The position numbers were made by a program, and so were the translations under genes. A stretch of 64,000 nt of DNA from a bacterium BMS3Bbin08 (GTDB taxonomy: Bacteria > Nitrospirota > Thermodesulfovibrionia > UBA6902 > BMS3Bbin08): NCBI GenBank assembly GCA_002897775.1, contig BDTR01000032.1:5556-69555 (forward strand), read 5' to 3'. Shown here piece after piece: positions 4,834 to 23,893 of this stretch. Positions within the stretch are counted from its first letter, which is position 1, and each line of letters starts with the position of its first letter. The notes beneath the pieces were generated by a model. It was not told the origin of the DNA and searched no databases. It was given only the letters and a program-made list of their open reading frames with translations.

Positions 4834-6325
4834 GATATTCGATACAACTCTCAGGGACGGGGAACAGTCGCCTGGAGCGTCCATGAACGTGGATGAAAAG
4901 GTGCAGGTTGCAAAACAGCTTGCCCGCCTTGGCGTGGATATTATTGAGGCTGGTTTTGCATTCAGCTCTCCGGGTGATTTTGAAGCCATAAAGACCATTG
5001 GCGCGGAGGTGGAGGGTCCTGTGATCTGCAGTCTTGCCCGGGCAAAAGAAGATGATATAAAAAGAGCCTGGGAAGCGCTCAGGGATGTTCCGAAGAAAAG
5101 GATCCACACATTTCATTCGACCTCTGATATCCATCTTAAGCACCAGTTCCGCATAAGCCGTGAAGAGGCCTTAAAGAGGTCTGTGGAAATGGTCAGGTTC
5201 GCGCGGAGCCTTGTTGAAGATGTGGAATTTTCACCCATGGACGCGGCAAGGACAGATATCAGTTACCTCTGTGAGGTTATAGAGGCGGTGATTGACGCTG
5301 GCGCGTCAACGGTCAATATACCTGATACGGTCGGCTATAGCATTCCGAATGAATTCGGCGCTTTAATAAAGGATATCCATGGCAGGGTGAAAAACATTGA
5401 TAAGGCCGTGATCTCGGTTCACTGCCATAATGACCTCGGACTCGCGACGTCAAACTCTCTTGCCGCGGTGCTTAACGGAGCAGGCCAGATCGAATGCACT
5501 ATCAACGGGATCGGGGAGCGTGCCGGAAACTGTTCTATGGAAGAAGTCGTAATGGCGATGAGGACAAGGCGGGACCTCTTCAACGCTGATACTCACGTAA
5601 ACTCTGAGGAGATAATGCGCAGCAGCAGGCTTGTTACAAAGGTCACAGGCATCTCGGTTCAGCCGAACAAGGCTATCGTCGGCGCCAATGCCTTTGCTCA
5701 CGAGTCAGGTATCCATCAGGACGGCCTGTTAAAGGACAAGTCGACCTATGAGATCATCAAACCCGAGACAATAGGCCTTCACAAGACAAAGTTTGTTCTT
5801 GGCAAGCATTCCGGAAGGCATGCCTTCAGAACCAGGCTTGATGAGCTCGGCTATAAATTGGCTGACGATGAGATCAACAGCGCGTTTGAGAGGTTTAAAA
5901 AGATCGCGGACCAGAAAAAGGATATCTTTGATGAGGACATAGAGGCCCTTGTTTCTGAAGAGGTCGGGAAAACCCCTGAGATATACAGGCTCCTGGGATT
6001 AAAAGTGTCTTCAGGCCTCGATCAAAAACCCGCGGCTGAAATAAAGCTCAAGGTTGATAAAGAAGTTGTGGAAAAAACAGAACATGGTGACGGCCCGGTC
6101 GATGCTGTTTATAAAGCCATTGCTTTAATTACGGAAACAGAGAGCAGCCTCATCAAATATGAGGTCAAGAGCATAACCGGCGGGACTGACGCCCTTGGAG
6201 AGGTGATGGTATCTCTTGAAGAGGACGGCAGGTCGGTAAGAGGGCACGGCGCTGATACCGACATTATTGTTGCCTCTGCCCAGGCGTATATAAACGCTCT
6301 GAACAAGCTTGCCGCAAAAAAATAG
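4820..6325 (+). CDS. leuA: 2-isopropylmalate synthase
   Basis: 501 aa. N-terminus MRTVKIFDTTLRDGEQSPGASM (HMGL-like TIM barrel) plus a C-terminal LeuA regulatory domain. Overlaps the pssA stop by 14 nt. Confidence 0.9.
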   Translation: MRTVKIFDTTLRDGEQSPGASMNVDEKVQVAKQLARLGVDIIEAGFAFSSPGDFEAIKTIGAEVEGPVICSLARAKEDDIKRAWEALRDVPKKRIHTFHSTSDIHLKHQFRISREEALKRSVEMVRFARSLVEDVEFSPMDAARTDISYLCEVIEAVIDAGASTVNIPDTVGYSIPNEFGALIKDIHGRVKNIDKAVISVHCHNDLGLATSNSLAAVLNGAGQIECTINGIGERAGNCSMEEVVMAMRTRRDLFNADTHVNSEEIMRSSRLVTKVTGISVQPNKAIVGANAFAHESGIHQDGLLKDKSTYEIIKPETIGLHKTKFVLGKHSGRHAFRTRLDELGYKLADDEINSAFERFKKIADQKKDIFDEDIEALVSEEVGKTPEIYRLLGLKVSSGLDQKPAAEIKLKVDKEVVEKTEHGDGPVDAVYKAIALITETESSLIKYEVKSITGGTDALGEVMVSLEEDGRSVRGHGADTDIIVASAQAYINALNKLAAKK

Positions 6326-6508: not shown

Positions 6509-7786
6509 ATGAACATCACGGAAAAAATTCTTGCCGCACACCTGTCTGACCGGCAGGCGGGCTCAGGCAAAAAAGAGGTATCAGCCGGAGAGCTGATCAA
6601 CGCCAGGGTTGACCTTGTTCTTGCCAATGATATTACCGCGCCTATCTCAATTACCGAGTTTAAGAAAACCGGAGCAAAGGATGTATTTGATAAGAACAGG
6701 ATTGCTTTTATACCTGATCACTTTGCGCCTCAGAAAGACATAAAAGCTGCGGAACAGTGCAAGATGCTCAGGGAGTTTTCCAGGGAGTACGGTCTTGGGC
6801 TTTACTTTGAGGTTGGAAGAATGGGAGTTGAGCACGCGCTTCTTCCTGAAGAGGGCATTGTCGTGCCCGGAGACCTGGTCGTGGGGGCTGACAGCCATAC
6901 CTGCACCTACGGCGCGCTCGGGGCTTTTTCAACGGGCGTCGGCTCAACAGATGTGGCAGCGGCTATGGCAACGGGAGAGTGCTGGTTTAAGGTCCCTGAA
7001 TCAATGAAATTTATATATTACGGAAAGCTCAATAAATGGGTCAGCGGCAAGGACCTGATACTTCATACTATCGGGGATATCGGAGTGGACGGCGCGCTTT
7101 ACAGGGCAATGGAATTTGAGGGAGAAGTGATCAGGTCGCTTCCCATGCATTCGAGGCTCACAATGTGCAACATGGCAATAGAAGCCGGGGGGAAGAACGG
7201 GATCATTGTGCCCGATGAAATAACAGAGCAATATGCCAAAGGCAGAGCCAGGAGGGAATATACATTTTATACTTCTGACGAGGATGCGAAATACGCGGAG
7301 GTTAAAGAGTACGATTGTTCAAGTATCCCTCTTACTGTATCATGCCCGCACCTCCCGTCAAATACAAAGCCTGCCGCAGAGCTTTCCAATGTCGCGATCG
7401 ACCAGGTTGTTGTAGGCTCCTGCACGAACGGCAGAATAGAGGACATGAGAGAGGCGGCAGAGGTTATAAAAGGCAGAAAGGTAAACCCGAACGTAAGGAT
7501 GATAGTAATTCCCGCGACACAGAAGGTGTACCTTCAGGCTGTAACAGAAGGACTTGCCGAGATATTTGTGAACGCGGAGGCTGTTTTTTCAACCCCTACA
7601 TGCGGTCCGTGCCTCGGCGGGCATATGGGAGTCCTTGCGAAAGGCGAGCGGGCGATCGCGACAACAAACAGGAATTTTGTGGGCAGAATGGGGCACCCTG
7701 AAAGTGAAGTGTACCTTTCAAATCCCGCGGTTGCGGCGGCTTCCGCGATAAAGGGAAGGATAGCGACGCCTGAGGAAGTGATCTGA
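6509..7786 (+). CDS. leuC: 3-isopropylmalate dehydratase large subunit (aconitase family)
   Basis: 425 aa. Aconitase-family Fe-S ligand region ([10 protein letters not shown]..., PTCGPCLG). Followed by leuD. Confidence 0.88.
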
Positions 7787-8014
7787 CGGAAATTGCTTCA
7801 ATAAAACATGAGTGATTACATGAAGTATGGCTACGCAACAAATTGATAAATAAACTTTTTTGCTGTGATGTTGTTGCTGATTTGACAGAAGGTAAACTGG
7901 CAGAATTGGAACACCGGTGGATGTAGTATAACAAGACATGGAAAGCTGGTGAGCCATTAGTTGTTAGCTGTTAGTTATGAGCTATCAGCTATGAGCTATT
8001 TGGGAGGAGATAAA

Positions 8015-8533
8015 ATGATCCTTAAAGGTAAGGTCTGGCAGTTTGGAGATAATGTAGACACTGACGCGATAATCCCGGCGCGCTATCTTAATACATCAGA
8101 TCCCAAAGAACTTGCCAGGCATATAATGGAGGATGCTGACAAGGAATTCCCGGACAAGGTAAGCTCCGGAGATATAATAGTTGCGGGAAACAATTTCGGG
8201 TGCGGTTCTTCAAGAGAGCATGCCCCTATCGCGATAAAGGCAGCTGGTCTTCAGGCTGTTATTGCAAAGAGCTTTGCCAGGATATTCTACAGAAACTCGT
8301 TTAATATAGGGCTTCCCATCTTTGAGTCTGAAGAAGCGGCTGAGAAGATCAGCGCTGGAGATGAGATAGAAATAGACGCGGACAGGGGTGTTATCAAAAA
8401 CATCACTAAAGGCGAAGAATACACCGCAAAACCTATTCCTCCGTTCATGCAGGAATTGATCTCAGTAGGCGGTTTGATCGAATGGACAAAGGCCAAGATC
8501 AAAAAACAAGAAATTGAGAGGTTGAGAAGTTAA
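8015..8533 (+). CDS. leuD: 3-isopropylmalate dehydratase small subunit
   Basis: Start moved to the ATG at 8015 ([25 protein letters not shown]), 6 nt after GGAGGAG. Aconitase swivel-domain motifs. Confidence 0.88.
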
Positions 8534-9695: not shown

Positions 9696-10043
9696 ATGAT
9701 TATGGAACAGAATGTTTTTCTTGTTATCAGCAGTGATGTGATGGGAAAGGATGAGGATATAGGCAGGGCGGTAATAAAGAATTTTTTTGAGACTGTAAAG
9801 GCTACAAAAGAAATACCCCATACTATCTTTTTTGTAAATGCCGGGGTAAAGCTTACGACTGTAAACGAGGAGACAATAGCCATTCTCAAGGACATTGCAG
9901 AACTGGGAACAGAAATGTACTCATGCGGCACATGTCTGAAACATTATGACCTTGAAGACAAGATAAATGTCGGCAACAGGGGCGCTTCTACCCAGGTGGT
10001 CGAGGCGCTTAATGATTTCAAAAAAGTAGTATGGGTAGGGTAG
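9696..10043 (+). CDS. DsrE/DsrF-like (YedF C-terminal-like) sulfur/selenium-relay family protein
   Basis: About 115 aa from the ATG at 9696 after AGGAGG. DsrE-like fold with conserved Cys (MYSCGTCLKHYD). Sits next to the selC-like tRNA and selD. Confidence 0.5.
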   Translation: MIMEQNVFLVISSDVMGKDEDIGRAVIKNFFETVKATKEIPHTIFFVNAGVKLTTVNEETIAILKDIAELGTEMYSCGTCLKHYDLEDKINVGNRGASTQVVEALNDFKKVVWVG

Positions 10044-10113
10044 TTCAACCCTTGCTCCTATCTTCCTGGTTCTCGCTTTTGCCCCGAATTCAAAGGCGCG
10101 TCATAATCAGAGG

Positions 10114-10242
10114 TCACTCTAACATCATAGCAGAGTGCCACGGGCTTGCCCGTGGGAATCTGCTAACCTTATTGCTTTTTACGTTCAGATAGAAATTGCA
10201 GCCTGTCCCGCAATATGTGCATGTAGTCCTGACCTTTTCCAT
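10114..10242 (-). pseudogene. 42-codon remnant of a molybdopterin oxidoreductase (formate-dehydrogenase-like) N-terminus
   Basis: Translation MEKVRTTCTYCGTGCNFYLNVKSNKV... carries the CxxCxxxC 4Fe-4S motif that opens Mo-bisPGD enzymes such as FdhF. It stops after 42 codons and nothing continues in any frame. Preceded by AAGGAG. The ORF-track call 10114..10326 is an upstream extension that overlaps the tRNA. Confidence 0.45.
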
Positions 10243-10270
10243 TTCATAATTCTCCTTTGTGTTTATAATC

Positions 10271-10367
10271 TGGAGAGGGGAAGTGGGAATTGAACCCACC
10301 AGGACATTTTCTGAATATCCTGTCACTGGTTTTGCAGACCAGGAGGAACACCAGTTCCATACCCCTC
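10271..10367 (-). tRNA. tRNA-Sec-like tRNA with Cys anticodon GCA and U73 (selC-like tRNA-Cys), 97 nt including CCA
   Basis: Manual fold of the reverse complement: 8-bp acceptor stem (GAGGGGUA/UUCCCCUC, one U.U), 6-bp D-stem (GGAAC/GUUCC plus terminal U.U) with 4-nt loop UGGU, 5-bp anticodon stem CUGGU/ACCAG with loop CUGCAAA (anticodon GCA), roughly 26-nt variable arm with a CAGGA/UCCUG stem, 5-bp T-stem GUGGG/CCCAC with loop UUCAAUU, discriminator U, encoded CCA. Confidence 0.75.
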
Positions 10368-10534
10368 ATACAATTAATGACTAACAGGTTTTTTGGCGCT
10401 ACTTCAGCGAAAATCCGTCTTGCACACGCTGACCTCTGTGACTGTAAACAATACGGTCCATCTCCTTTTTGTTTTTGAATGGCTTTAGGCTATCCCTGGA
10501 ACAGCCTTGAAGAATCGGAATATATAATATATTC

Positions 10535-10562
10535 TATAGGCATGTCAAATAGATTTATTTTA
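10535..10562 (+). promoter_or_regulatory. conserved 28-nt motif, copy 1 (TATAGGCATGTCAAATAGATTTATTTTA), about 115 nt upstream of the LysR gene
   Basis: 26/28 identical to 12694..12721, in the same orientation. Both lie in AT-rich promoter regions. Confidence 0.45.
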
Positions 10563-10676
10563 TTAACATTAGTTTATTGATAGATACAACCGATAGTTTG
10601 CAGGTCGGATTTAATCCGGGTTAAAATAAGTCGGCGCAATTCAGAGAAAATCAATCGCCATATTTGGAGCTAAGTT

Positions 10677-11564
10677 ATGGATATACAACATTTAAAGATA
10701 TTTATCTCAGTTTATAAAAACAGGGGTTTCTCAAAGGCGGCTGTAGAACTCCACCTAAGCCAACCGACTATCAGTGAACATATAAAAAATCTGGAGTTTG
10801 AGCTTGGCTGTAAACTCTTTGACAGAGTTGGGCGCACTATTATTCCGACTAGAGAGGCGGGTATCATATATCCAAAGGCATTACAAATAATAGAAGACCT
10901 TGAAAAACTAAGGGAAGAACTGTCTCATGCCGGAAGTAATATAAAAGGGCAACTGATTCTGGGAGCAAGCACCATCCCCGGTACATACATCCTGCCGGTC
11001 ATGGCATCGGAGTTTAAGAAGCTGTACCCCGAGGTCTCATTTGAAATAATAATAGAGGATTCAAGAAAGATTACTGATATGGTCTTAAATTATGATCTGA
11101 TACTCGGTGCAGTAGGGGCTGAAATGGAACCGGGGAAAATTAACTATCTGCCTTTTATAGAGGATGAGCTGATACTTGCAGCCGGTGAAAAAGTTATTCC
11201 AAAAAATACCATAAGTGTGAAGGGATTAAAAGATGTCCCGTTTATCTTGAGGGAAGAAGGATCCGGAACGCTTAAAACAATGGAGCGTTTTCTAAATAAA
11301 AAGGGGATAGATATCGGGGAATTAAATGTTGTTGCAGTGCTTGGCTCTACCGACTCAGTGAAACAGGCAATAAAGTCAGGACTTGGTGCGTCAATATTAT
11401 CGAGGATTGCTATTAAGGACGAGTTGACTTGCGGGGCATTGAAGGAGATAAGGATAAGAGGGCTGAAAATGAAAAGGAGCTTTTATCTGATTACTCATAA
11501 AAAACGTGCTTTACCGAATCCTTACAATGCATTTTACAACTATCTGAAAGATTCAAAGCGATAG
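10677..11564 (+). CDS. LysR-family transcriptional regulator
   Basis: 295 aa. N-terminal wHTH (FSKAAVELHLSQPTISEHIKNLE) plus a C-terminal LysR substrate-binding domain. Confidence 0.85.
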   Translation: MDIQHLKIFISVYKNRGFSKAAVELHLSQPTISEHIKNLEFELGCKLFDRVGRTIIPTREAGIIYPKALQIIEDLEKLREELSHAGSNIKGQLILGASTIPGTYILPVMASEFKKLYPEVSFEIIIEDSRKITDMVLNYDLILGAVGAEMEPGKINYLPFIEDELILAAGEKVIPKNTISVKGLKDVPFILREEGSGTLKTMERFLNKKGIDIGELNVVAVLGSTDSVKQAIKSGLGASILSRIAIKDELTCGALKEIRIRGLKMKRSFYLITHKKRALPNPYNAFYNYLKDSKR

Positions 11565-11600: not shown

Positions 11601-12650
11601 TTAACTGATCTGTACACATGGTTGATTACCGCCTGCTACTTCACCAATTAAAACAGCAGACTCAATTCCTTCATTCTTCAATTTTTCTATTAGAATTGAT
11701 GCATGAGAGTTTTTGACTGAGAGGAGAAGCCCTCCTGAGGTCTGAGGATCAAAAAGCAATTCTTCTTCCTCTGAAGAGAGTTTTATCTTTATCTCTAAAA
11801 ATCCCTCGGACAATTCTCTGTTCGGTTTATTGCTGCCCGTGGTCACTCCCTTGCGATACATTTCTATGGCATTCGGGAAAATAGGCAGATTTCTATAAAA
11901 CAGGTTTATCTGCATTTTACTGCCCTTCGCAATCTCCAGTGCATGTCCGACAATACCAAAACCCGTTACATCAGTACATGAGTGAATGTCGAATTTCAAG
12001 GCTGTCTCAATGGCTTTACCATTAAGAAAAGCTATCCAGGGGAGCAGGGGCTCCAGTTTTTTAAAGGGCAGCTTTTTGGAGCGGCAGGCGTTGAAGAGCA
12101 CGCCGGTCCCCAGCGGTTTAGTAAGAATCAGTGCATCTCCCTCGCGAGCGTCGCAGTTGGTGAGTATCCGCTCAGGGTGAACTATCCCTGTAACCGCAAG
12201 GCCGTACTTCGGCTCATTGTCGTCAACCGAATGGCCTCCGGCCATGGAAGCGCCGGCTTCGATTACTTTATCACTTCCTCCGCGGAGTATCTCTTTTAAT
12301 ATTCCGATGTCAAGCTGCTTTGAAGGGAACATCACAACATTCAGGGCTGTAAGGGGTTTGCCGCCCATTGCGTAAACGTCGGAAAGAGAATTAGCTGCAG
12401 AAATCTGCCCAAACCAGTACGGATCATCCACCGGCGGAGTAATATAGTCGACAGTAGATATTACGGCAATATCAGGTGAAAGGCGGTATACAGCCGCATC
12501 ATCGCTGGTTTCGAAACCTACTAACAGGTCAGGATCATCCGGGGTTTGAATCGATCCGAGCGCAGCCGACAGAACTGTCGGGCCAATTTTTGCAGCTCAC
12601 CCGCAGGTTCTTGCGAGACCTGGTAAGGTTTTTTTCTTAAAAAAAGTCAT
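11601..12650 (-). CDS. selD: selenophosphate synthetase (selenide, water dikinase), selenoprotein form with in-frame UGA (Sec) at 12597-12599
   Basis: The ORF track begins at an internal GTG (12431). Extending upstream gives MTFFKKKTLPGLARTCG-U-AAKIGPTVLSAALG...DPDLLVGFETSDDAAVYRL, which aligns with E. coli SelD GAGCGCKISPKVLETIL...DPNLLVGNETRDDAAVY with U at catalytic Cys17. ATG at 12650 after a GAGG RBS. No other stops between. Confidence 0.88.
12566..12582 (-). promoter_or_regulatory. candidate bacterial SECIS hairpin (CCGACAG-UU-CUGUCGG) 15-33 nt downstream of the selD UGA
   Basis: 7-bp stem with G/U in the apical region, at the spacing bacterial SECIS elements occupy downstream of UGA. 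Confidence 0.5.
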
Positions 12651-12693
12651 ATAACCTCACATTTAATAATTTATCGAAATAGTAAATAATAAC

Positions 12694-12721
12694 TATAGGA
12701 ATGTCAAATAGATATATTTTA
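12694..12721 (+). promoter_or_regulatory. conserved 28-nt motif, copy 2 (TATAGGAATGTCAAATAGATATATTTTA) in the selD/nikR divergent promoter region
   Basis: 44 nt upstream of the selD start and about 160 nt upstream of nikR. Matches 10535..10562. Confidence 0.45.
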
Positions 12722-12882
12722 CAGAATGAGTATCATTTATAGAGAATGCCTATATTAGCACGAGAGTGCCGATATCATATTTTGACGGCAATGACTATAG
12801 ATAAGCATTTTCAATGTTGAAACTTGACAATACATCAATACTAATGATATTGTAGTGCTACTTTAATTGAAAAAGTAACACC

Positions 12883-13299
12883 ATGTCCACTGTAAGATTC
12901 GGCATATCACTTGAGAATTCCCTGCTTAAAGGGTTTGACAGCCTTATAAAGAAGAAGGGCTACGCGAGCAGGAGTGAAGCGATCAGGGATCTGATAAGGG
13001 ACAGCCTTGTAAAAGAAGAATGGGAGCATGGCAATAAGGACACGGTCGGGGCTATTTCAATTGTTTATTCGCACGGCACAAGGGAACTTAGCGATACACT
13101 GACCGATATCCAGCACAATTTCCATTCTTCAGTGGTTTCCTCTTTGCACGTTCACCTTGACCATCATAATTGCCTTGAGGTAATTATAGTCAGGGGAAAG
13201 GGCAGGGAGATCAAGAAAATAGCTGACAGGCTGATAGGCACAAGAGGCGTAAAGCACGGAAAGCTTTCTTTAACAACAACAGGGAAAGATCTGAAATAG
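12883..13299 (+). CDS. nikR: nickel-responsive transcriptional regulator NikR (RHH plus ACT-like metal-binding domain)
   Basis: 138 aa. N-terminal ribbon-helix-helix ([35 protein letters not shown]) and a C-terminal His/Cys-rich domain ([10 protein letters not shown]). Confidence 0.8.
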
Positions 13300-13347
13300 C
13301 CCCCGTTAGATTCTAACGAATCAGGACAAGGGGGATAATTTTTTATT
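13300..13347 (+). terminator. GC-clamped hairpin plus T-run (CCCCCG..GATTCTAACGAATC..GGGGG ATAATTTTTTATT) after nikR
   Basis: Stem and U-tract read directly. Shares CCCCGTTAGATTCT with the element after hemH. Could be an attenuator because the nik transporter genes follow on the same strand. Confidence 0.45.
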
Positions 13348-13460
13348 GCTTGGTAGCACAAATATAATAATAGTAACACTTTTCCGGAAGAGGAAGACGC
13401 AAGAGGGATTATTCAATCCCTGCGGGGACAGCATTTAAATCCAAATGAAGGAGGTCTGCT

Positions 13461-14498
13461 ATGCATATGGCAGATGCATTACTTTCGCCCGGCGTTGGAA
13501 CAACGTTCTGGGCAGGTTCGTTAGGGGTAATTGGTTACTGTGCGAAAAAACTGAGAGAAAATATAAATGAAAAAATGATTCCTTTGATGGGGATCCTGGC
13601 GGCATTTATATTTGCAGCCCAAATGATCAATTTTACAATTCCCGGTACCGGCTCAAGCGGCCACATCGGGGGTGGTATGATTCTTGTCATCATCCTGGGG
13701 CCCTATGCCGCGTTTATTGCCGTTGCTTCTGTGTTGACTGTCCAATGTCTTTTTTTTGCTGACGGGGGCATACTGGCGCTTGGATGTAACATATGGAACA
13801 TGGCCGTATATCCCTGTTTTATTGCTTACCCATTAATTTATGCGCCTCTCACCAAAGGAAATAAAACCCCGGGTAGGATCATGATCGCGTCAATATTGAG
13901 TGTTGTGGTCGCGTTGGAGTTTGGCGCGCTTTCCGTAGTTCTTCAAACGATGTTTTCAGGCAAGACAGAACTTCCCTTTACTACTTTTTTAGTTTTGATG
14001 CTTCCAATTCATTTCGCGATTGCCATCGGGGAGGGTTTTATAACGGGTGGTTTTGTAAATTATATCAGGGTTATAAAGCCTGAGGTTCTTGATGTAGTTG
14101 AAGGTTCCAGGGCATTTTCTGTTAAGAAAGTTCTTGTCAGTATTGGGATAGTTGCAATTATTACAGGTGGGATGCTGTCGTGGTTCGCTTCGACACATCC
14201 TGACGGACTTGAATGGTCCATAGAGAGGGTGTATGGGAAAGCAGTGCTTCCAGGGTACGAGACAGGGATTATTCCGGATTTGAGAGATATTCAGGAAAAG
14301 ACAGCAATTTTACCTGATTATAATTTTCCCGCTGGTAAGGAGGAAAAATCTGAGGGAGCTGCTGACTCCTGGCCAGCGGTTAACGCTGGAACTTCATTTT
14401 CCGGTATAATTGGCAGCCTGATGGTTCTTGGATTGGTTTTTATCCTTGGATTTGGTATAAATGCAGTGAAGAGTAAACGGCGAAACATGGTAATATGA
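13461..14498 (+). CDS. nikMN: ECF-type Ni/Co transporter substrate component, CbiM/NikM fused to a CbiN/NikN-like C-terminal segment
   Basis: 345 aa. CbiM-type N-terminus MHMADALLSPGVG and a multi-TM body. The C-terminal extension carries the PDGLEW motif. RBS AAGGAGG. Followed by Q and O components. Confidence 0.72.
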   Translation: MHMADALLSPGVGTTFWAGSLGVIGYCAKKLRENINEKMIPLMGILAAFIFAAQMINFTIPGTGSSGHIGGGMILVIILGPYAAFIAVASVLTVQCLFFADGGILALGCNIWNMAVYPCFIAYPLIYAPLTKGNKTPGRIMIASILSVVVALEFGALSVVLQTMFSGKTELPFTTFLVLMLPIHFAIAIGEGFITGGFVNYIRVIKPEVLDVVEGSRAFSVKKVLVSIGIVAIITGGMLSWFASTHPDGLEWSIERVYGKAVLPGYETGIIPDLRDIQEKTAILPDYNFPAGKEEKSEGAADSWPAVNAGTSFSGIIGSLMVLGLVFILGFGINAVKSKRRNMVI

Positions 14499-14570
14499 AA
14501 TGAATTTTGTGATCCGCTATAAGGTAATCGTTATTCGTATTAACTTATAGCTGATAACTGTCTTAATTTT

Positions 14571-15377
14571 ATGCCTTCTTTTGATAAAGAATATTTCAAT
14601 CTGGGTTATCTTGACACGTTGTCATATAAGGATACGTTTGTTCATAGGCTGGACCCGAGAATAAAACTGGTTACAACCTTTATCTTTATTTTGTTTGTAG
14701 TTTCGTTTCCAAAATATGAGATCCTTAAAATGTTGCCGTTCTTTTTTTTTCCTGTTTTTATCCTGTCAGTCGGTGAGATCCCGCTGAAATTTATCTTAAA
14801 GAAACTCCTTATTGCTTCGCCATTTGCTCTATTTGTGGGAATTTTTAATCCGTTCTTTGATACGGCGGCAATGTATAATTTTTACGGGATCCCGATCTCT
14901 GGTGGATGGGTGTCATATCTTTCTATTATAATAAAATTCATTTTGACCGTTACTGCCGCGTTACTCCTGGTTGCCACAACGTCGTTTCCTGGCGTCTGCT
15001 TAGCTCTTAAAAAACTAAAAGTTCCAAATGTATTTGTTGTTCAGCTCCTTTTTCTATACAGATACATGTTTGTTCTTACAGCAGAGACTATGCGAATAAT
15101 CCGAGCCAGGAACATGAGGTCATTCGGAAAGAAGGGGCGGGGTATGAAGACGCTTATCAGTATTATTGGAGTGCTTTTTGTGAGGACGGTAGAGCGTTCC
15201 GAAAGAATATACCAGGCGATGTGTTCAAGGGGGTTTGACGGTGAAATCAGACTTTTAACGAGTTATAAAATCGGGTTTGTTGATATTTCATTTGCTATCA
15301 CAGCAATTACTGTTTTTATTATATTCAGAGGATATGATGTAACAAAAACCCTCGGGGAATTAATAACTAAAACTTAA
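14571..15377 (+). CDS. nikQ: ECF transporter transmembrane (T) component CbiQ/NikQ
   Basis: 268 aa, multi-TM, CbiQ-like region including the RSFGKKGRG stretch. Confidence 0.72.
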   Translation: MPSFDKEYFNLGYLDTLSYKDTFVHRLDPRIKLVTTFIFILFVVSFPKYEILKMLPFFFFPVFILSVGEIPLKFILKKLLIASPFALFVGIFNPFFDTAAMYNFYGIPISGGWVSYLSIIIKFILTVTAALLLVATTSFPGVCLALKKLKVPNVFVVQLLFLYRYMFVLTAETMRIIRARNMRSFGKKGRGMKTLISIIGVLFVRTVERSERIYQAMCSRGFDGEIRLLTSYKIGFVDISFAITAITVFIIFRGYDVTKTLGELITKT

Positions 15378-15400
15378 AAATAAATCTGTAATTATTAATT

Positions 15401-16135
15401 ATGAGTCATCACATTATAGATTTTAAAAATGTCCATTTTAATTATCCTGACGGCACTGAGGCGTTAAAAGGCGTTACCTTCAGGATTACACATGGAGAGT
15501 CAGTCGGCATTGTAGGTGCCAATGGTGCCGGCAAGTCAACTCTGATTTTCCATATGAATGGTTATCTTCTACCTACAAAAGGGGCAATAATAATCGGCGA
15601 TGTCCAGTTGGGTAAAACTACACGAAATGAAATCAGGAAAAAAGTTGGAGTGGTTTTCCAGGATCCTGATGATCAGCTTTTTATGCCGACTGTTTTTGAT
15701 GATGTTTCCTTTGGTCCTTTGAACATGGGATTGACCAAAAATAGAGTTATAGAAAGGGTTACTGAGGCCTTAAACACGGTAGGTTGTTATGAATTAAAGG
15801 ACCGCCCGCCCCACCATCTTTCCTCGGGGCAGAAACGCGCTGTTTCCATAGCAACTGTTATAGCGATGCAGCCTGATATTCTTGTAATGGATGAACCTGC
15901 GGCAAGCCTGGACCCCAGATCACGCCGGCAGCTTATAGAACTCCTTAAGGAGTTCAAACATACAAAAATTATCGCTTCTCATGATCTTGATCTTATATTG
16001 GAAGTTTGCAAGAGATGTATTGTAATTGCTGATGGGAAGGTGCGCGCTGACGGGCTTACTGAAGAACTGCTTATGGATGAGAAATTACTTATTGAGAACA
16101 GCCTTGAGCTCCCGCTTTCTTTAAAAGGCAGATGA
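15401..16135 (+). CDS. nikO: ECF transporter ATPase CbiO/NikO
   Basis: 244 aa. Walker A GANGAGKST, signature LSSGQKR, Walker B ILVMDEP. Confidence 0.82.
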   Translation: MSHHIIDFKNVHFNYPDGTEALKGVTFRITHGESVGIVGANGAGKSTLIFHMNGYLLPTKGAIIIGDVQLGKTTRNEIRKKVGVVFQDPDDQLFMPTVFDDVSFGPLNMGLTKNRVIERVTEALNTVGCYELKDRPPHHLSSGQKRAVSIATVIAMQPDILVMDEPAASLDPRSRRQLIELLKEFKHTKIIASHDLDLILEVCKRCIVIADGKVRADGLTEELLMDEKLLIENSLELPLSLKGR

Positions 16136-22825: not shown

Positions 22826-23893
22826 TTGAGGGAGAATAACGGGAAAAGCATAGGTGTTGTTTTACTGAACCTCGGCGGACCGGATTCTTTAAGTTCCGTG
22901 CGTCCCTTCCTGTATAATCTGTTTTCTGACAGGGGCATTATCAGGCTCGGTCCTTCCTTTCTGCAGAAATCCATTGCATGGCTGATATCAGGGTACCGTT
23001 CGAAAAAATCAGAAGAAATGTACAGCCTGATAGGAGGCAAATCTCCAATATTTGAGATTACAACGGCCCAGGCTGAAGCGCTTGAGAAAGCACTAAATAC
23101 AGAAGTTGAGAAGATAGGAAGTTTGGAAGATAAGATATCCTCAACATCTCAGCCTCTCAATTTCTTAACTTCCTCTTTCAAGGTGTATGTGGGTATGCGC
23201 TACTGGTATCCATATATAAGCGACACAGTTGATAAGATTCGTAGTGATGGTATTGAACAAGTGGTTGTGTTAAGCCTTTACCCCCACTATTCAAAGGCAA
23301 CGACAGGTTCTTCAGTTGCCGAGTTTAAACGCGTGATTTCACGATTCACGATTCCCTCCAAACAGCCGGCGGGCAGGCACGATTCACGATTCACGGTCAA
23401 ATATATTGATCAGTGGTATGATTTTCCCCTGTATATTGACGCGCTTTCAGATCGTATTGCAGAGGGGATGTCAAAATTCAAAGGAAAGACTTTTGATATT
23501 CTATACAGCGCGCACAGTCTTCCTGAAAGCTTCATCAAACAGGGAGACCCGTACCTCGATCATATCAAATCAACCATAAAGGCAGTTAACCCGTCAATCG
23601 GCAAGTGGCATCTTTCTTTCCAGAGCAGGAGCGGGCCGGTCAAATGGTTACAGCCTGACACGGAAGAGACTATAATCAGGCTTGCAAAGGGCGGCGTCAA
23701 GAATTTACTGGTAGTGCCGATAAGTTTTGTATCTGACCATATAGAAACCCTCTATGAAATAGATATTTACTATAAAAAGATCGCAAAGAGTTATGGTATA
23801 AATTTAAAGAGATGTGAATCATTAAATTTATCCGAAAAATTCATAAACGCTCTTAAAGAGTTGGTACTGGAAAAACTAAAGGAGTCGGAATGA
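22826..23893 (+). CDS. hemH: ferrochelatase (proto- or coproporphyrin ferrochelatase)
   Basis: 355 aa. Opens GVVLLNLGGPDSL and ends with the ferrochelatase C-terminal core. Contains a short internal tandem duplication (SRFTIPSKQPAGRHDSRFTV). Confidence 0.85.
   Translation: MRENNGKSIGVVLLNLGGPDSLSSVRPFLYNLFSDRGIIRLGPSFLQKSIAWLISGYRSKKSEEMYSLIGGKSPIFEITTAQAEALEKALNTEVEKIGSLEDKISSTSQPLNFLTSSFKVYVGMRYWYPYISDTVDKIRSDGIEQVVVLSLYPHYSKATTGSSVAEFKRVISRFTIPSKQPAGRHDSRFTVKYIDQWYDFPLYIDALSDRIAEGMSKFKGKTFDILYSAHSLPESFIKQGDPYLDHIKSTIKAVNPSIGKWHLSFQSRSGPVKWLQPDTEETIIRLAKGGVKNLLVVPISFVSDHIETLYEIDIYYKKIAKSYGINLKRCESLNLSEKFINALKELVLEKLKESE

Follow-up and report, generated by a model that had tools for sequence, protein, structure and literature searches.

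A 28-nt sequence that occurs twice in the window, i.e., the whole 64-kb stretch of DNA analysed here, is likely the core of an operator-promoter module of approximately 85 nt belonging to LysR_Se, the selenium metabolism-associated LysR regulator that is encoded between the two copies. From its sequence, copy 2 would drive selD (selenide, water dikinase) and copy 1 a selC*-type tRNA-Cys gene, and LysR_Se probably controls both genes through the module. The module combines two dyads at a fixed distance with a sigma-70-like promoter, is conserved beside lysR_Se in other genomes and lies in front of selenium genes. The features are listed in Table 1.

The two 28-mers lie in the same orientation and are identical at 26 of 28 positions, as the preliminary description of this DNA had reported, and the distances given there are right as well: copy 1 is found about 114 nt from the ATG of lysR (10677) and copy 2 43 nt from that of selD (12650). 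On both strands of the 64 kb, they are the only matches with up to three mismatches. None is expected by chance, as 100 dinucleotide-preserving shuffles gave no match to the 28-mer, and a search of the window with a profile of the module returned the two copies only. The upstream regions had been called otherwise dissimilar. This holds for the linker and the downstream sequence, but the repeat extends to 49 nt, where a conserved CGAT sits just past the −10 box, and a second island of similarity, a dyad of the form ATAG-N7-C[TG]AT, is present 31 bp to the right of each copy (10580-10594 and 12739-12753). Compared island by island, copy 1 and copy 2 of the window agree at 25/28 positions in the core and 10/15 in the distal dyad, and at 5/16 in the linker and 3/15 downstream. 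Such patchy islands at fixed spacing argue for constraint on binding sites rather than for a recent duplication.

Table 1. Features of the selenium island and of the two module copies (window coordinates unless a locus is named).
Feature	Position	Strand	Description
YedF homologue	9702-10043	+	C-terminal (DsrE-like) half only, TIGR03527 profile positions 83-194
Formate dehydrogenase alpha N-terminal fragment	10058/10114-10242	−	MEKVRTTCTYCGTGC...; truncated, frameshifted; directly downstream of selC*
selC*-type tRNA-Cys(GCA)	10271-10367	−	95-97 nt; tRNA-Sec-like fold; U73 at 10274; encoded CCA 10273-10271
Extended repeat, copy 1	10514-10562	−	49 nt, 80% identity to copy 2; also spans spacer, −10 and CGAT
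Predicted sigma-70 promoter of selC*	10519-10548	−	−35 TTGACA 10548-10543, 18-nt spacer, −10 TATATT 10524-10519
28-mer, copy 1	10535-10562	− (functional reading)	TATAGGCATGTCAAATAGATTTATTTTA on the + strand; putative module core upstream of selC*
Proximal dyad, copy 1	10549-10563		+ strand ATAG-ATTTATT-TTAT, − strand ATAA-N7-CTAT; one half-site degenerate; abuts −35
Distal dyad, copy 1	10580-10594		ATAG-ATACAAC-CGAT; 31 bp from proximal dyad
lysR_Se	10677-11564	+	Selenium metabolism-associated LysR regulator, NF040786; presumed module binder, encoded between the two copies
selD (selenide, water dikinase)	11601-12650	−	In-frame TGA (Sec) at codon 18, 12597-12599; predicted target of copy 2
Extended repeat, copy 2	12673-12721	−	49 nt, 80% identity to 10514-10562
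Predicted sigma-70 promoter of selD	12679-12707	−	−35 TTGACA 12707-12702, 17-nt spacer, −10 TACTAT 12684-12679
28-mer, copy 2	12694-12721	− (functional reading)	TATAGGAATGTCAAATAGATATATTTTA on the + strand; putative module core upstream of selD
Proximal dyad, copy 2	12708-12722		ATAG-ATATATT-TTAC
Distal dyad, copy 2	12739-12753		ATAG-AGAATGC-CTAT; perfect LTTR-type dyad; 31 bp from proximal dyad
nikR-cbiM(N)-cbiQ-cbiO operon	12883-16135	+	Ni/Co ECF transporter under NikR; own predicted promoter 12824-12853
Secreted transglutaminase-core protein	L062 ~7050-8070; L046 ~9860-10880		Also in L039, L052, L045 and L076

The module has to be read on the minus strand, in the order distal dyad, proximal dyad, −35 box, spacer and −10 box. 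A plus-strand reading had been assumed before and is not supported: in both copies TTGACA and the −10 box point leftwards. Read in this direction, copy 1 is TAAAATAAATCTATTTGACATGCCTATA and comprises the proximal dyad, the −35 box and the beginning of the spacer. With spacers in the 16-18 bp range of sigma-70 promoters, TTGACA-18-TATATT matches 11 and TTGACA-17-TACTAT 10 of the 12 consensus positions, and these are the two best promoter matches in the region. The orientation is supported by the module loci of other genomes and by a matrix of 27 promoters (see below). Transcription would start near 10512 (selC*) and near 12672 (selD).

For the dyads, the window copies were aligned with those of L001 (bacterium BMS3Abin06, LysR 82% identical to that of the window), L091 (a syntenic metagenome contig) and L009 (SAR324, LysR 59% identical). 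On the minus strand the distal dyad reads AT[ACT]G-N7-CTAT; L001 and L091 retain that of copy 2. The proximal dyad reads [AG]TAA-N7-CTAT in the window and ATAG-N7-CTAT in the family consensus. T-N11-A-type dyads, as known from LTTR sites, are thus found in the window and, as ATAG-N7-CTAT at both positions, in the family consensus. The distance from CTAT to CTAT is fixed at 31 bp, corresponding to three helical turns, with 30 bp in L009 and 35 bp in L002. In the aligned loci the CTAT of the proximal dyad abuts TTGAC, and the spacer holds CCTATAG, followed by the −10 box and the conserved CGAT. A 21-nt dyad PWM trained on other genomes was dropped, as the maxima of shuffled sequences (mean 14.0) exceeded the score of the selD dyad (12.1). 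In the window, this matrix ranked the selD distal dyad second; its top match was a tandem ATAG-N7-CTAT pair inside the coding sequence of ferrochelatase (hemH) at 23738-23776 (+) (…SDHIETLYEIDIYY…). This match arose by chance and warns that the dyad lacks specificity when used by itself. An RNA element was also considered as explanation and rejected, as an Rfam scan of the window yielded only the tRNA.

The presumed binder of the module scores 302.7 bits against the NCBIfam model NF040786 (LysR_Sec_metab, cutoff 250). Its subfamily, LysR_Se, was predicted from gene neighbourhood and phylogeny alone (Lin et al., 2015; PMC5322559). The window protein passes the curated cutoff and is encoded in the gene context by which the family was defined (selD, yedF, Sec-type tRNA); as in the window, lysR has selD, yedF, selC* or tRNA-Sec as neighbours in many of the 80 loci compared below. 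The terms 'binding site', 'operator' and 'regulon' are absent from that paper, and an operator, binding site or regulon of a bacterial LysR_Se was not found in the searchable literature. The module and its predicted target list are additions to the family description.

As in other LTTR systems, the putative site lies beside the regulator gene: copy 1 is located between the divergent selC* and lysR, and in L091 and L001 the start of lysR is within about 60 nt of the module. Copy 1 had been assigned to lysR in the preliminary description, which overlooked the divergent tRNA gene. Its main target would be selC*, and autoregulation of lysR remains a plausible secondary role of copy 1, because lysR is transcribed divergently from it. 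Some further observations concern the start of lysR. In 23 of 57 lysR_Se orthologues (L023-L079), mostly from Nitrospirota, an extended −10 element (TGnTAnnnT) ends 5-9 nt before the ATG in the absence of a Shine-Dalgarno sequence, against a random expectation of 0.5%. This suggests that the lysR mRNAs of these orthologues may be leaderless. The window lysR, by contrast, has a GGAG Shine-Dalgarno sequence in its start region (10655-10679). Between module and lysR, the window carries about 95 extra nt (~10596-10676) relative to L091 and L001, which are common to L128. The sequence at 10580-10591 (ATAGATACAACC) resembles the start of lysR (ATGGATATACAAC), which hints at a small duplication.

For the comparison across genomes, the regulator was used to collect 80 loci with LysR_Se orthologues from species-representative genomes. 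Co-occurrence of module and lysR is therefore partly built in, and the spacing scan described below controls for composition and not for the identity of the binder. Both module copies are found at syntenic positions in L001 and L091 (LysR 82-85% identical to that of the window), and copy 1 of L001 has no obvious target on the minus strand. In L009 the orthologue reaches 293.5 bits against NF040786, and the module agrees with that of the window at 24/28 positions in the core, 11/15 in the distal dyad and 3/15 in the linker. Matches to the module profile (nhmmer) were weak. In Nitrospirota they clustered directly behind lysR and in front of selC* or yedF; most loci of this phylum carry the module downstream of lysR, directed away from that gene and towards selC* or yedF. 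The spacing was then addressed with the pattern C[TG]AT-Nx-CTATT, which was scanned for x = 20-40 from 400 nt upstream to 500 nt downstream of lysR in the 80 loci. For x = 27, 19 matches were obtained in 17 loci, and every other x gave 0-3. Anywhere in the 80 loci, 33 N27 sites were found, 27 of them module-like and six GC-rich chance matches in coding sequence. The matrix of 27 non-redundant promoters reads (t)atAG-N7-CTAT - N16 - ATAGA-N6-CTAT-TTGA(c); 18 bp behind TTGAca it shows a TAannT box. The ATAG left halves, TTGA and the −10 box were absent from the search pattern and therefore provide independent support for the module model. Two other approaches were abandoned: 6-mer enrichment in the lysR upstream regions was confounded by the coding sequence of upstream genes and by GC content, and 18-mers shared, with up to three mismatches, by the lysR upstream region and other sites of the same locus were chance-level noise except in L001.

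The genes behind the module form a coherent selenium-related set, and this is the main argument for regarding it as the LysR_Se operator. In nine genomes (window, L091, L003, L037, L039, L045, L046, L055 and L076) selC*(GCA) follows directly; six of these nine tRNAs were called by Rfam, that of L055 by its anticodon-arm sequence, and those of L037 and L046 by visible tRNA 5' sequence only. The 5' end of selC* lies only 7-12 nt past the −10 box in L039, L055 and L076. The gene selD is found behind the module in the window, L001 and L091, and probably in L014. In L057, L072 and L016 it is yedF (L057 and L016 by TIGR03527, L072 by tblastn and N-terminal similarity), followed in L057 by tRNA-Sec(UCA), and in L074 yedE (TIGR04112, 490 bits). 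The L009 module precedes an operon for a 'putative selenate ABC transporter' (TIGR04553, 373.5 bits), and that of L044 a double-cubane reductase. Directly behind the module of L063 (~7215-7850) and L055 (~7418-7600), a stand-alone LysR_Se effector domain lacking the HTH is encoded (212 aa, 176 bits to NF040786 positions 89-296), which could be a selenium-ligand-binding protein or an anti-regulator. A secreted transglutaminase-core protein of 338-339 aa recurs behind the module in Nitrospirota (PF01841, 92.9 bits; no NCBIfam match); we know of no role of this protein in selenium metabolism. A c-di-GMP-I-GGC riboswitch in L063 (1512-1591, +; RF03167, 76.3 bits), about 4.4 kb upstream of lysR_Se, is unrelated.

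The tRNA behind copy 1 is called tRNA-Cys(GCA) by ARAGORN, and Rfam places it in tRNA-Sec (RF01852) with 56.7 bits against a gathering threshold of 47. Folding of the RNA gives a cloverleaf whose variable arm is long (z = −4.1). Both the window and six related loci have the CU-GCA-AA anticodon loop, U73 and the encoded CCA. Mukai et al. (2017; PMC5389517) described a class of tRNA-Sec-like selC* tRNA-Cys with U73 and GCA or UCA anticodon, with Nitrospirae/Thermodesulfovibrio among its sources. By its sequence features, the window tRNA belongs to this class: it is alike in fold, U73 and GCA anticodon, and it stems from a Nitrospirae-like genome that uses Sec (selD with a Sec codon). The main text of that paper is silent on LysR or selC* regulation, whereas in our comparison selC* appears as the most frequent module target; mention of selC* regulation was not found in the searchable literature. 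In L091 about 60 nt separate the promoter from the 5' end of selC*. The selC* leader of the window contains an insertion of about 83 nt (~10385-10470) relative to L091 and L001. A possible leader peptide between copy 1 and the tRNA, MDRIVYSHRGQRVQDGFSLK (10399-10461), was rejected, as this stretch is absent in L091 and L001. In L002, the 102-nt tRNA that ARAGORN calls tRNA-Gly(acc) (5576-5673, −) is a selC* tRNA-Cys(GCA) according to Rfam (tRNA-Sec, 49.4 bits) and its CU-GCA-AA loop, and it is divergent from lysR, as in the window.

The neighbourhood of lysR in the window is a selenium island. The in-frame TGA of selD is at the active-site position, and SelD itself is therefore a selenoprotein, which poses the usual bootstrapping problem. 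The GCA anticodon of selC* cannot read UGA; thus, selC* is no obvious answer to it. The YedF homologue lacks the N-terminal TusA-like domain, a homologue in L091 aligns over the same segment (tblastn), and no module is found in front of the window gene. The formate dehydrogenase fragment, which has a similar 50-aa counterpart in L091, is probably the remnant of an fdhA that once followed the tRNA.

Several other explanations have to be weighed against a LysR_Se operator. A plain shared promoter, i.e., an UP-element-like A/T tract and a consensus −35 box kept alike at two strongly expressed genes by RNA polymerase alone without LysR, would fit the perfect TTGACA with properly spaced −10 boxes and the A/T-rich tract just upstream of −35. 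It would also fit the left half of the window proximal dyad (ATAA/GTAA), which is degenerate and whose A/T tract could equally be an UP element. We nevertheless regard it as unlikely, as it leaves unexplained why a further conserved dyad lies at precisely 31 bp upstream, the narrow spacing peak at N27, the ATAG left half-sites of the family consensus, the restriction of the downstream genes to selenium genes beside lysR_Se and the conservation of CCTATAG in the spacer across phyla. Potentially, the operator belongs to another factor, either an OxyR-like LTTR or an unrelated regulator, with LysR_Se as a mere neighbour. ATAG-N7-CTAT is also the half-site pattern of the OxyR consensus, selenium chemistry is redox-linked, and all loci were chosen via lysR_Se, a selection that does not identify the binder independently. 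The dyad centres of the oxidised OxyR tetrad are, however, spaced by roughly 22 bp and those of the module by 31 bp. Moreover, the module lies directly beside lysR_Se in at least 17 species from three phyla, often in the intergenic region between lysR and target, which is the classic LTTR arrangement. This makes another factor a distinctly improbable binder.

The preliminary description had proposed a plus-strand operator shared by lysR and the divergent selD/nikR promoter, which would couple selenium and nickel. Its idea of a shared LysR operator or promoter is very probably right, judging from the family score, the T-N11-A dyads and the conservation beside lysR across phyla, and selD was proposed there as a target, in agreement with copy 2 reading as a selD promoter and with the module kept upstream of selD in L001. 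Copy 1 lies upstream of lysR, with the module within 60 nt of the lysR start in L091 and L001, and copy 2 between selD and nikR. The nickel part found no support: L001 retains the module upstream of selD in a locus where a homologue of nikR was not detected, about 100 nt separate the module from the predicted promoter of nikR (12824-12853), and no nickel genes were found among the module targets of other genomes. The module also points away from lysR in most loci from Nitrospirota. The nikR-cbi operon thus appears to be independent of the selenium module, and there is little chance that the proposal as a whole is correct. Least credible of all is the view that the copies are a dispersed repeat or a miniature mobile element, or that a recent local duplication left them behind as neutral sequence. 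The near-identical copies are only 2.2 kb apart, and the window carries indels near copy 1 relative to L091 and L001. However, flanking terminal inverted repeats and a longer repeat unit are missing, the identity is patchy and not uniform, and both copies occupy the same positions in related species, with the core conserved in another phylum. Many copies scattered over the genome had been named as the outcome that would speak for a repeat; there are two in the 64 kb, and matches outside the clade come without the module. A metagenome scan with the exact 20-nt core TATAGRNATRTCAAATAGAT gave 53 matches, of which about 50 were unrelated AT-rich sequence; by our own estimate, chance could account for them, given a pattern of ~36 bits and the very large size of the collection. 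The two real ones were the syntenic relatives L091 and L128. The dispersed-repeat reading is thereby largely refuted.

We infer that LysR_Se binds the module. A LysR_Se tetramer could bridge both dyads, which three helical turns would place on one face of the DNA. A selenium-derived effector would then alter the contacts of LysR_Se at the −35-proximal site, and selD and selC* would be switched together with selenium status, whereas the same complex at copy 1 may autoregulate the divergent lysR. One candidate effector is selenophosphate, which has been suggested for the archaeal orthologue HrsM. A near-consensus −35 box is unusual for an activator-dependent promoter. Together with the conservation across −35, it would also suit repression.

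The proposed layout resembles known LTTR operators (OxyR, BenM/CatM, CbnR), in which two T-N11-A dyads lie on one helix face, the proximal one touches −35 and the regulator gene is adjacent and often divergent. Counted from transcription starts placed 7 nt past the −10 box by consensus matches, the dyad centres of the module lie near −75 and −44, which would correspond to the usual layout of recognition site and activation site, where the distal site is expected near −65 to −80 and the proximal one close to or over −35. In contrast to these operators, the centre spacing of the putative operator described here is fixed at 31 bp, no third intermediate dyad is evident, and conservation in the clade of the window runs through −35 into the spacer (CCTATAG). 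In the searchable literature, HrsM of Methanococcus, an archaeal LysR_Se orthologue, is the only tested member of the family. It acts in a selenium-dependent manner, with selenophosphate as the suggested cue, and binds an intergenic region that separates divergent operons. HrsM represses genes of Cys-containing isoenzymes (frc/vhc), whereas the predicted targets of the module are Sec machinery, selenium uptake genes and a tRNA. Archaeal promoters differ as well.

None of the three components, i.e., regulator family, tRNA class and LTTR operator architecture, is new in itself. Little is known about how bacteria perceive selenium and control its use, and the operator geometry (two ATAG-N7-CTAT dyads, 31 bp apart, abutting −35) together with the predicted targets (selD, selC*, yedE, yedF with tRNA-Sec, a selenate-type ABC transporter and a secreted transglutaminase-like protein) provides testable material. 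The module can be used as a probe in EMSA or DAP-seq, as a pattern for regulon mapping and as a candidate selenium-responsive promoter. It would also give a first hint, from the side of regulation, at what selC* tRNA-Cys does. Tentatively, selC* tRNA-Cys(GCA) might be a core, perhaps the most frequent, member of the bacterial LysR_Se selenium regulon. If this is true, selenium status would switch the level of selC* in step with selD, yedE/yedF and selenium uptake, and the tRNA may help to manage decoding as Sec or Cys, or to sense or titrate the Sec machinery (SelA/SelB), instead of taking part in housekeeping translation.
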